NCBI GenBank assembly: GCA_000165345.1
Contig: CM000436.1
Span: 992,001 to 1,056,000, forward strand
Length of the DNA stretch: 64,000 nucleotides
Direction: 5' to 3'
The stretch's first letter is position 1. Every line of letters starts with the position of its first letter. The translations under genes were made by a program, and so were the position numbers. Positions 40-5,499 of this stretch are shown one piece after another. The notes under the pieces are model-generated. The model saw only the letters and a program-made list of their open reading frames with translations. It was not told the origin of the DNA and did not search any database.

Positions 40-3000
40 ATGGTAGATGATGAAAATGTACTACAAAAGAACTTTGAGACTAGTGTGATGTTTGCTCCAC
101 CTCTGGCAATGCCTGAAATTAAAGTAAAATCTCCAAAAAGGATGATGCACAGTAGAGGTAGAAGTCCTGTAAAACATACATCTCCAAGGAAGATAGGAAT
201 AGATATGAAAGAAATAGCAAAGGTTGTAGTAAAACAAGTACAAGATACTTTAGAAGCGACTATTGAGAATAGTCAGATTGAGATAGAAGATAAAATAGAT
301 TCTTTAAATGAATATTTGAAACAATTGGAGGATAAAACTAATTTGATATTGGAAAAAAGCGAGCAAAATAGTCCAAAATTGGAAATTATTAAGAGTGAAT
401 CATTTAAAGAGAAGGTGGAAGCAGTACCAAAAAAGCAGAATTTATCACTATTATCGCCAGTTAAAAAGAAAATGGAGGCTCCAATTCCTCCAAAGAAGAC
501 AACAGTTGCTCCAAAATCAACAGAAGTAGAAAAAGAGGAACGTGAACAATCGCACGAGAAAGTAAGTGTAAAATTTTCTCAATATTTTTCAATGTTTAAG
601 AAAAAAATGTTGAAAAGTTTTAATAGTATCAATGAATTATATCATGAAATGAAACCTGATTCAAATGGAGATATATCAAAACAAAACTTTACCAAATTTT
701 TAATTAAAAATAAGATCCCAGGAGGAAATATAGAACATGCAAAATTATTTGATGAATTAAAAAGTCAGAGTGGTTTAATTACAAGATTGTCATTATTTAA
801 GAATATTCATCCATTATATGAGAGTTCTGATCCTTCTTTAGAGGATTTTGTTAAGTTATTAGATGAAATATATGAGGGTTGCGAGATTCCCGTATTAGTT
901 TCAACATTTAAAGATACATTTTTGAATAAGACAACTTTTGTCAAATTTGGTCAGGATCAACTATTGTTGAGTGAATCAAGTATGGATTATATTTGGAAAA
1001 ATTATTTGAGTTCCGGAGATGTAGGTATTTTCAATACTTCAGATAAATTTATAGAAAAAATAATGAGTATTCGAAAGGAGTTAGGATTAGAAGATTTGGC
1101 TAATGAAGGTATTAATGTTGATATGGAAATTTCTAAAAAGGAGAAAGAAGAAGAAGAAGAAAGAGAAAGAGAAAGAATAAGAATAGAAAAGGAGAAAGAG
1201 GAGGAGGAAGAAAAAGAAAGGGAAAGGGAAAGAATAAGAAAAGAAAAAGAGGAGGAAGAGGAAAGAGAAAGACTAAGAAAAGAAAAGGAGAAAGAGGAGG
1301 AAGAAAAAGAAAGAGAGAGAGAAAGAATAAGAAAAGAAAAGGAGAAAGAGGAGGAGGAAGAAAAAGAAAGAGAGAGAGAAAGAATAAGAAAAGAAAAGGA
1401 AAAAGAGGAAGAGGAAGAAAGGGAGAGAGAAAGAATAAAAATAGAAAAAGAGAGAGAAGAAGAAAAGGAGAAAATAAGACAAGAGATAAAAAAGAAGACT
1501 CCATCAGTTACATCATTATCCTCTGTTTCTTCAGTAAAGTCAAAATCAGTTCAGTCTTCTGCTCCATCATCATCATCTTCTTCATCATCTTCTTCTTCAA
1601 AAAAAAACTCAAAAAATGTTTCATCAATTCCTTCAAAGGAAAACCTATCAGAAATAGAAGTTAGTAGAGGTAGAAGTAGAAGTAGAAGGAATTCATCAAA
1701 GTCCAATTTTTCTGAAAGTAATAGAAATTCTATAATTGGATCATCAGACTCAGAGAAAGATTCAAAAATTGCTTCAAAATCTAAATCGAAGGATAAATTA
1801 AAGTCTGAATCAAAAAATAAATTAAGTTCTGGATCAAATTCAGAAAATAGTATAGAATCAGAATCAAGTTCAAGTTCAAGTTCAAGTTCAGAATCAGGAT
1901 CTAGATCAGCATCTAGATCAGAATCAAATTCTTCATCTAGATCAGAATCTGAATCATCAAATTCTGAAAATGAAATGAAATTGAATAAGAAATTATCATC
2001 AAGTAGTAATATTAATAAGTTAGATTCTCAAACTCAGGAAGATTTGAATAGTTTTGAAAAAGATCCAACAAAAAGAGCAATTTTAATGAATTTAGATCCA
2101 GAAACAGAGAATTTACCACTGGAAGATCGATTAAGAAGCAGAATCAAGGAGGTTTATAAGACAGGAGTTGCTGCATATAAGGAGATGTGTGGCGATAAAT
2201 TTGGTAATAAAAATGCAACATTATCCGAATTTGGAGATTTTATTGAAAAATTGAATATCTTTTTAAGTTTCGCAGAAAGCAAAGAATTTTATGGAAAAAT
2301 TACAAAATCTCAAGGTGGTTCTTTAACTATTGGTTCAATGTATTCATATTTACATAAATTAGAATCAGTTAAAAATGCTGATCCTGAGATAATAGGTAAT
2401 CATTTGAAGGAGATATATGGTACCATTGAAGAAGCTTTTAAGAAAAAGGATCTATTTGATCATGAAACTATTGTAGAAGAAGAATTTATTAAAATTTGTA
2501 TTGATTCTGGATATAATCAAATTGCATTAAAATCATTATTTAAAGAAATGACAGGAAATATTGATGGTGCATATGTTGAAGTACAAGATGTAATACAATG
2601 TTTACAAGGTCATATAACAGCAAAAGAAGTTTATGAAGATGAATCAAATAGAAATTCACAATGGGCAATTTGGAGAGTTGTACCACAAAGAAAAATACCA
2701 ATTAATGAAGATAAAAGAAAATCTGAATTAAATATTGTAATACAAGCATTAACATCTGAAAAAATTAAAGAATTTAAAGGAATAGGAAGAGAAGAATTAT
2801 TACATATTGCAGAAAATTTCTTTATGAGAGAACAATTATCAGCATCTAGTCAAATTTTAGCTATTGATGAAAAAGGTTATTCACTTTCAGTAATAGTTTC
2901 TGGTGCTGTTGATTCTATTGAATCTTTATGGTATGGAGAAAATATAATAGAAACATTTAAAGTTGGTGATATTATTGGAATTGGAATGTTTAAATCAGAA

Positions 3001-5499: not shown

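Follow-up and report, generated by a model that had tools for sequence, protein, structure and literature searches.

The window considered here is a 64,000-nucleotide (nt) stretch of Cryptosporidium DNA (GenBank assembly GCA_000165345.1, contig CM000436.1, positions 992,001 to 1,056,000 of the forward strand). It is AT-rich (GC 0.21-0.38 per 2-kb block) and packed with long intron-free open reading frames (ORFs) for eukaryotic housekeeping proteins, among them a histidyl-tRNA synthetase, proteasome Rpn3, a DEAH helicase, WD40 proteins and CBF/Mak21. At its left edge, on the plus strand, lies a gene for a large protein with four cyclic-nucleotide-binding (CNB) domains and no recognisable catalytic domain. 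This gene is the Cryptosporidium orthologue of the apicomplexan protein called CBP-O in Plasmodium and PCR12 in Toxoplasma, an assignment that sequence comparison supports well for the C-terminal two thirds. The protein is a reduced, ordinary but uncharacterised member of a recently described and already known family. No published study specific to the Cryptosporidium gene was found in the literature searched; a published conservation table scores a PCR12 match for C. parvum.

A partial gene of the CBP-O/PCR12 family

The ORF at 40..5499 (+), which an earlier note on this DNA had put at about 1800 amino acids (aa), is genuine and encodes 1819 aa counted from its first ATG, but it is truncated at its N-terminus by the window. 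The same frame is stop-free from window base 1 and runs for 1832 aa before the stop at 5497-5499. On the strength of this open frame and of the alignment with the orthologue from Cryptosporidium sp. chipmunk genotype I, the gene is described here as a partial coding sequence (CDS; 1..5499, +) comprising the C-terminal 1832 codons and the stop, and residues are numbered by the 1832-aa translation of window bases 1-5496. The alignment with the chipmunk genotype I protein (1912 aa) begins at the latter's residue ~180, so the window lacks some 180 N-terminal residues, and the CDS would start ~540 nt upstream of it. The continuation beyond the window edge raised in the earlier note is thus real, and the complete protein is predicted to have about 2010 aa.

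Identity to the chipmunk genotype I protein is 90% over the C-terminal 1139 aa and to the C. serpentis orthologue 47%, with fragments from C. ryanae, C. felis and C. canis ranking next. The chipmunk genotype I contig is collinear with window bases 8-11361 at ~83% nucleotide identity and shares the neighbouring genes, a histidyl-tRNA synthetase followed by a gene of ~800 aa, both on the minus strand.

The best sequence match in the PDB is chain MA of 9ya0 ("PCR12, TGME49_219070"), with an E-value of 3.5e-34 over aa 1339-1804. This alignment starts before the third CNB domain, so the similarity to PCR12 reaches beyond the CNB domains into a helical module. Matches to the regulatory subunit of cAMP-dependent protein kinase (PKA-R) and to cGMP-dependent protein kinase (PKG) are much weaker (1e-8 to 1e-3; best PKA-R 2.6e-8). 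Word-indexed homologue searches yielded Cryptosporidium proteins and, besides them, only a few unrelated CNB proteins; their candidates were filled by low-complexity words, and the sequences of the query alignment did not come back as matches. The orthologues came from an exhaustive profile search. When the Cryptosporidium profile was run against 1.84 billion representatives, eight proteins scored below 1e-30 and 28 below 1e-10. The matches below 1e-30 come from Cryptosporidium species, Besnoitia, the Toxoplasma TGME49_219070 cluster, Eimeria, Cyclospora and Cardiosporidium. They are followed, at 1e-28 to 1e-17, by Rhytidocystis and by the Plasmodium cluster annotated as "rap guanine nucleotide exchange factor" or EPAC, which is CBP-O; the P. 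berghei sequence found carries exactly the residues numbered in the CBP-O paper. Comparison with orthologues, which the earlier note had proposed, therefore identifies a family that has already been described. In the Foldseek matches of both structure models the 9ya0 PCR12 chain was not seen, the lists being filled by PKA-R and PKG tandems.

Further features of CBP-O/PCR12 are found in the window protein. It has the C-terminal cassette of an EF-hand-like module, a degenerate CNB domain (CNBX in Plasmodium) and a canonical CNB4 with Glu, Arg-Thr and a Tyr cap, and Pfam scans detect no kinase, guanine nucleotide exchange factor (GEF) or other family above threshold. In the full-length orthologues PF00027 is the only Pfam family present, and the protein ends 26 residues past CNB4 with no Pkinase match, so that the absence of a kinase domain claimed in the earlier note is borne out. 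A reading of the protein as an EPAC-type, cAMP-regulated Rap GEF would agree with the label "rap guanine nucleotide exchange factor, putative" that the orthologues of P. knowlesi and P. berghei still bear, but the DEP, REM, RA and CDC25-homology domains are all absent from the Pfam scans, and the authors of the CBP-O study likewise rejected it and gave the protein a new name (PMC12422582); we give this reading next to no credence. Membership of three other groups was rejected: EPAC, whose defining DEP, REM and CDC25-homology domains were not found by Pfam; PKG, which would require a Ser/Thr kinase domain C-terminal to the CNB domains; and classical PKA-R, despite the tandem fold, given the lack of a conserved RRxS/A inhibitor site and of a dimerisation/docking (D/D) domain.

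The N-terminal domain that targets the Toxoplasma and Plasmodium proteins to the apex has no detectable homologue here. Using Cryptosporidium orthologues, with part of the compared region lying outside the window, hhalign of the N-terminal 340-400 aa with that domain gave a probability of 0.06%, and hmmsearch with the Cryptosporidium N-terminus found only the EF-hand-like module. The N-terminal ~350-500 residues thus show no detectable relation to Toxoplasma PCR12, and the N-terminal 1700 aa of Plasmodium CBP-O are unrelated in sequence to the Cryptosporidium protein.

The duplicated cassette and its CNB domains

From its N-terminus, the protein consists of an N-terminal region, a helical module (module N), a charged ER/K repeat, a Ser-rich linker, a first cassette, an Asn/Asp-rich linker, a second cassette and a tail. 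Cassette 1 combines the EF-hand-like module M1 (aa ~700-890) with CNB1-CNB2 (aa 930-1174), and cassette 2 combines M2 (aa 1263-1495) with CNB3-CNB4 (aa 1557-1806). The conserved core is a duplicated cassette, in which a degenerate EF-hand-like domain of four helix pairs is joined to a tandem CNB pair like that of PKA-R. BLASTP between the two cassettes finds nothing, and the duplication is visible only by profile-profile comparison, where M1 and M2 are homologous with an hhalign probability of 99.9% (E 1.4e-31).

The EF-hand-like segment of the earlier note proved to be EF-hand-like, but as three homologous modules instead of one, all degenerate. In the AlphaFold2 model M1 (2098..2670, +), with a predicted local-distance difference test (pLDDT) score mostly of 75-93, forms four helix-loop-helix units with short beta bridges. 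It matches calmodulin weakly by hhalign (probability 67.5%, E 5e-5), which together with the helix-loop-helix architecture suggests an EF-hand ancestry of the modules. M2 (3787..4485, +), delimited by the AlphaFold2 model, by hhalign against M1 and by the PCR12 alignment, matches Toxoplasma PCR12 at ~2140-2330 within the alignment of aa 1339-1804 (domain E 5e-27). Module N (aa ~185-345; 553..1035, +) is recognised by profile search and by a weak, sub-threshold match to Pfam EF-hand_STIM1 (E 0.033), the only EF-hand match in the window protein; against M1 it gives a BLASTP E-value of 0.02. The Cryptosporidium N-terminal profile matches two EF-hand-like modules of Toxoplasma PCR12, at 974-1162 (independent E-value 5e-11) and 2062-2173 (1e-6). 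None of the three modules in the window protein scores above the Pfam EF-hand cut-off, and a PROSITE PS00018 scan finds no canonical Ca2+ loop in any Cryptosporidium orthologue. The orthologous modules of coccidia and Plasmodium give sub-threshold Pfam EF-hand matches (E 1e-6 to 1e-3), and in Toxoplasma and Besnoitia, unlike Cryptosporidium, one of the EF-like loops comes close to canonical.

Pfam recognises four stretches of cNMP_binding (PF00027) in the window protein (E=3.3e-23, 81.9 bits), as the earlier note had predicted from the letters alone. Scanned individually, CNB1 matches at aa 945-1020 (25.5 bits, E 1.3e-5), CNB2 at aa 1069-1142 (26.3 bits, E 7.3e-6), CNB3 at aa 1570-1662 (21.7 bits, E 2e-4) and CNB4 at aa 1705-1792 (27.3 bits, E 3.5e-6). 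AlphaFold2 models of the two halves (pLDDT 76 and 81) show the beta-barrel and helix of the CNB fold in all four. Their arrangement was said to be that of PKG or PKA-R; the likeness to PKA-R tandem pairs stands, but there is no run of four as in apicomplexan PKG, since the pairs lie within a duplicated cassette and a gap of ~380 aa separates CNB2 from CNB3.

Each pair shares the tandem fold of PKA-R and PKG (Foldseek E 1e-14 to 6e-17); against PKA-R structures the CNB3-CNB4 pair gives 1.7e-14 and the CNB1-CNB2 pair 6.4e-17. Unlike those kinases and their subunits, the protein lacks a kinase domain in cis, a conserved inhibitor sequence and a D/D domain, and three of its four phosphate-binding cassettes appear non-functional. 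The tandem fold raises the alternative that the protein is a giant PKA-regulatory-like anchor, whose CNB pairs dock and inhibit free PKA catalytic subunit at the apex and release it on nucleotide binding. Both pairs superpose best on PKA-R tandems, with those of T. gondii and P. falciparum ranked at the top, and some orthologues are annotated "cAMP-dependent protein kinase regulatory subunit". A motif between M1 and CNB1, KRKS in the window protein, is matched by RKLS in Toxoplasma and RKLA in Besnoitia at the aligned place, but C. ryanae has IRKS, and C. serpentis, Cardiosporidium and Cyclospora lack the Ser. Neither cassette of the pair downstream of the motif is functional, which would leave cyclic nucleotide (cNMP) unable to trigger release there. 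Pfam finds no RIIa dimerisation/docking domain, and no kinase partner is reported in the P2 ring model (PMC12819142). An anchor of this kind is improbable on this balance.

The motif itself (KRKS, aa 906-909, window 2716..2727) is a basic, PKA-site-like sequence in the linker between M1 and CNB1, reminiscent of the inhibitor sites of PKA-R.

The four CNB domains differ in the residues that contact the ligand. When their cassettes were aligned against canonical CNB domains and those of Toxoplasma and Plasmodium, CNB4 (aa 1689-1806; 5065..5418, +; identified by Pfam and alignment) proved to be the sole canonical one. Its cassette, YFGEWAIIKGFDERTS at nt 5260-5307, retains the phosphate-binding Glu1757, Arg1767 and Thr1768, and Tyr1806 supplies the cap. 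These residues align with E3014, R3023, T3024 and Y3062 of P. berghei CBP-O and with Toxoplasma CNB 'f'. The CNB4 cassette is invariant in three aligned Cryptosporidium sequences, and the Glu and Arg-Thr are also retained in C. ryanae. In the remaining domains, CNB1 (aa 930-1046; 2788..3138, +), CNB2 (aa 1055-1174; 3163..3522, +) and CNB3 (aa 1557-1678; 4669..5034, +), the cassettes are degenerate (IIG-IGMFKSEPSKQ, SIGDKYLINRMKYPY and LYGWKEYYSLKQASEV, respectively). These assignments draw on Pfam, the AlphaFold2 models, Foldseek matches and the alignment. All three domains lack both charged cassette residues, as they do in C. serpentis and C. ryanae. Judged by this alignment, three of the four CNB domains have lost the residues that contact cNMP, and CNB4 is the only one that still looks able to bind a nucleotide. 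Its Arg-Thr signature, of the PKG type, suggests cGMP as ligand, with dual specificity possible.

Domain by domain, CNB1 corresponds to the degenerate Toxoplasma 'a', and CNB2 is a degenerate version of 'b', which is canonical in Toxoplasma. CNB3 and CNB4 correspond to Plasmodium CNBX and CNB4, including the Glu, Arg-Thr and Tyr cap, and CNB3, like CNBX, is degenerate, as is its Toxoplasma counterpart 'e'. The domain alignment finds no counterpart of Toxoplasma 'c' and 'd' or of the ligand-binding Plasmodium CNB3. The central cluster, which includes canonical CNB domains in Plasmodium (CNB1 and CNB3) and Toxoplasma ('b' to 'd'), has none here, since CNB1 and CNB2 have neither Glu nor Arg in four of four Cryptosporidium sequences.

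What is shared with Toxoplasma PCR12 is therefore the duplicated cassette of EF-like module and CNB pair, a C-terminal pair in which a canonical CNB domain follows a degenerate one, an E/K/R-rich repeat upstream of the first cassette and the lack of a catalytic domain. The two differ in length (~2010 against 2720 aa) and in that PCR12 has six CNB domains, four of them canonical, whereas the Cryptosporidium protein has four with a single canonical one. P. berghei CBP-O is likewise a large apicomplexan-specific protein without GEF or kinase domain; its central cluster holds CNB1-3, of which CNB1 and CNB3 are canonical, where Cryptosporidium has two degenerate domains.

The nearest solved sequence relative of CNB2 (window 3148..3600) is the degenerate, non-binding third CNB domain of Plasmodium PKG (GTSIGDKYLINR against GMSFGDQYVLNQ), a likeness that hints at common origin or convergent degeneration.

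Between the window and chipmunk genotype I, CNB4 is the most constrained region, with a ratio of nonsynonymous to synonymous substitution rates (dN/dS) of 0.014 and 99% aa identity. CNB1-3 follow with a dN/dS of 0.08-0.26 (CNB2 alone 0.08) and 90-97% identity, and the EF-like modules with 0.11-0.20 and 88-94%. These ratios indicate that CNB1-3 are maintained as folded modules and that CNB4 is the most protected element: CNB1-3 are pseudo-CNB domains, kept under purifying selection. The same constraint could be expected if CNB1-3 bound a small ligand of another kind, such as the nucleosides bound by kinetoplastid PKA-R, and the protein integrated several signals, and trypanosome nucleoside-binding PKA-R structures do rank 3-6 among the fold matches of CNB1-2. 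That fold match is generic to all tandem CNB domains, however, no conserved alternative pocket residues were identified in CNB1-3, and a structural role explains their conservation equally well, leaving this explanation with only a slender chance.

A candidate sensor at the apical ring

Cyclic-nucleotide signalling drives motility, secretion and invasion in apicomplexans, where the known effectors are essentially PKG and PKA. CBP-O/PCR12 is a third, non-kinase effector, situated on the preconoidal ring at which the nucleation of actin for gliding begins. In Toxoplasma, TGME49_219070 forms a punctum at the "canopy" of the conoid; PBANKA_1025300 is the orthologue in P. berghei (PMC7951837). Cryo-electron microscopy (cryo-EM) identified the Toxoplasma protein, as PCR12, among the structural subunits of the preconoidal P2 ring, where each repeat holds two copies; the map does not resolve its CNB domains, suggesting flexibility (PMC12819142). 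The Plasmodium protein, long annotated as EPAC, lacks GEF domains and was renamed CBP-O; it localises to the ookinete tip, its loss reduces midgut invasion, its N-terminus is required for apical targeting and its CNB region for function, and it binds both cAMP and cGMP (PMC12422582). The earlier note had put the window protein forward as a cyclic-nucleotide sensor or scaffold, a proposal to which these orthologues lend support through nucleotide binding by CBP-O (PMC12422582) and through PCR12 as a P2-ring subunit (PMC12819142).

We regard it as fairly probable, with considerable room for doubt, that the Cryptosporidium protein is likewise an enzyme-less protein that places CNB modules at the apical invasion machinery and senses nucleotide through CNB4. 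Its N-terminal part would anchor it in or near the preconoidal ring, as the N-termini of its relatives in Toxoplasma and Plasmodium do. Spacing would be provided by the low-complexity linkers and the ER/K helix, leaving the C-terminal cassettes free to swing; the Toxoplasma cryo-EM map does not resolve the CNB domains. Cyclic nucleotide bound at CNB4 would rearrange the CNB3-CNB4 pair, as in PKA-R tandems. The rearrangement might in turn change how the protein touches the neighbouring EF-like domain or partners in the ring, tuning invasion by sporozoites or merozoites. The pseudo-CNB domains would act as structural or allosteric partners and not as ligand sites.

Several points weigh against this account. 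Preconoidal-ring localisation and nucleotide binding are inferred for the Cryptosporidium protein from its relatives only, and the N-terminal ~350 residues are unlike the targeting domain of Toxoplasma and Plasmodium, so the anchor could differ. Nucleotide binding has been demonstrated in P. berghei for a single domain, CNB3 of the central cluster (PMC12422582), which has no canonical counterpart in Cryptosporidium; with the one proven binding domain of the family lacking an equivalent, the role of sensor would fall to CNB4 by itself. Removing CNB4 in Plasmodium had no phenotypic effect, and the recombinant domain failed to bind, a failure that the authors ascribe to refolding from inclusion bodies after urea extraction (PMC12422582). 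The window's own CNB4 has a cassette one residue longer (GFDERT), all four CNB domains fall just below the Pfam cNMP_binding cut-off of 27.5 bits when scanned singly (21.7-27.3 bits), and the AlphaFold2 models were built on shallow alignments of 8-10 sequences.

The negative results in Plasmodium would be natural if all four CNB domains, CNB4 included, were pseudo-domains and the protein served only to build or brace the apical ring. Such a purely structural scaffold is unlikely, though it deserves to be kept in mind. CNB4 preserves its Glu, Arg-Thr and Tyr cap across Cryptosporidium, Toxoplasma and Plasmodium, and with its dN/dS of 0.014 it shows the strongest constraint of any region; the failed binding of the Plasmodium domain, moreover, is attributed by its authors to misfolding after urea extraction.

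Within the reading of an apical protein that senses through CNB4, a more specific form can be advanced tentatively. Cryptosporidium may possess an apical sensor pared to one working site, the cGMP-like CNB4, after loss of the central cluster that binds both cAMP and cGMP and on which function depends in Plasmodium, with the pseudo-CNB domains persisting as obligate structural or allosteric parts of the ring or as binders of other ligands. If this is true, the pared-down protein is a minimal natural version from which to learn what CBP-O/PCR12 senses and by what route cGMP acts on the ring where actin is nucleated for gliding. As the shortest version among those compared, with one intact predicted site, the Cryptosporidium member lends itself to asking whether it matters that the terminal CNB domain binds nucleotide and what the conserved pseudo-CNB domains do.

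Linkers, termini and neighbouring genes

The ER/K charged repeat (aa 373-500; 1117..1500, +), defined by composition, Tandem Repeats Finder (TRF) and species comparison, contains 61 E, 26 K and 24 R among 128 residues, so that 87% of it is Glu, Lys or Arg in alternating runs. It is coded by a 51/57-nt tandem repeat at nt 1136-1472 (TRF periods 51, 57 and 150 nt). The variability in length that the earlier note proposed was confirmed by comparison across Cryptosporidium species: the repeat measures ~128 aa here and ~40 aa in chipmunk genotype I, C. ryanae and C. serpentis lack it, and its expansion is visible as extra blastn segments against the chipmunk genotype I contig. Since the stretch is kept in some species of the genus and missing from others, its length is unlikely to be critical. 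An analogous E/R/K repeat precedes the first EF-like module and cassette in Toxoplasma and Besnoitia.

Spacers of the ER/K type that form a single alpha-helix (SAH) are known in myosin VI/X and caldesmon. The window repeat resembles them in its richness in E, K and R and in its alternating runs. The likeliest reading is that of a spacer of variable length, which may form a single alpha-helix. An antisense ORF of 123 aa at 1133..1504 (-) consists of L/F/S/P runs only, the mirror of the GA-rich charged repeat, and was rejected as a compositional artefact and not a gene.

Cassette 1 is flanked by two low-complexity linkers. The Ser-rich low-complexity linker (aa 501-685; 1501..2055, +), recognised by inspection of the sequence, has a dN/dS of 0.53 with 71% aa identity to chipmunk genotype I and is 7-26% identical to its counterparts in C. 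serpentis and C. ryanae. The Asn/Asp-rich low-complexity linker (aa 1195-1262; 3583..3786, +) includes a (TAA)n tract found by TRF at 3660-3768, reaches a dN/dS of 1.6 with 48% identity and shows 15-48% identity between species.

The N-terminal region (aa 1-180; 1..540, +) probably forms a coiled coil at aa ~70-130, where there is a weak match to Snapin_Pallidin (aa 71-132, E 0.0016). It is conserved within Cryptosporidium only, with a dN/dS of 0.09 against chipmunk genotype I. At the other end, the C-terminal tail (aa 1807-1832; 5419..5496, +; ..YHFSPKHSKRFNSPIR..) is conspicuous for its invariant alignment columns, YHFSPKH..RFNSP.R being identical in three aligned Cryptosporidium sequences (alignment columns Y1126-R1141). 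It has low AlphaFold2 pLDDT and is probably disordered in the model, and it may be a docking or phosphorylation motif. The coccidian orthologues end in another conserved tail, RTRKSSLAL.

Next to the CBP-O/PCR12 gene, at 5906..8839 (-), the histidyl-tRNA synthetase ORF encodes 977 aa, of which the catalytic domain occupies only the part from residue ~510. Its N-terminal extension of ~500 aa has no Pfam match, and the protein is of similar length in chipmunk genotype I (979 aa).

Three other long ORFs, at 24067..28989 (+), 9571..11922 (-) and 54241..56982 (-), encode 1640, 783 and 913 aa and have no Pfam family at E<=1e-5 and no sequence relative of solved structure.

A 1959-aa ORF at 13173..19052 (+) carries one Filamin repeat and is the orthologue of Toxoplasma FLM1 (TGME49_271780; 9ya0_FA, E 3.4e-70), which also belongs to the preconoidal P2 ring and is indispensable in Toxoplasma. 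The window thus holds two P2-ring genes on one strand, separated by ~7.7 kb. Their proximity could be due to chance, for which a rough count (~25 window genes x 19 other P2 subunits / ~3900 genes) gives roughly 12%.

Coding tandem repeats occur elsewhere in the window as well. One at 37888..38107 (18 nt x 12.3) lies within the WD40 ORF 37493..39298 (-). Another, at 51634..52039 (30 nt x 13.5), falls where the ORFs 50895..51968 (-) and 51525..52199 (+) overlap, within a locally GC-rich block of strong GC skew.

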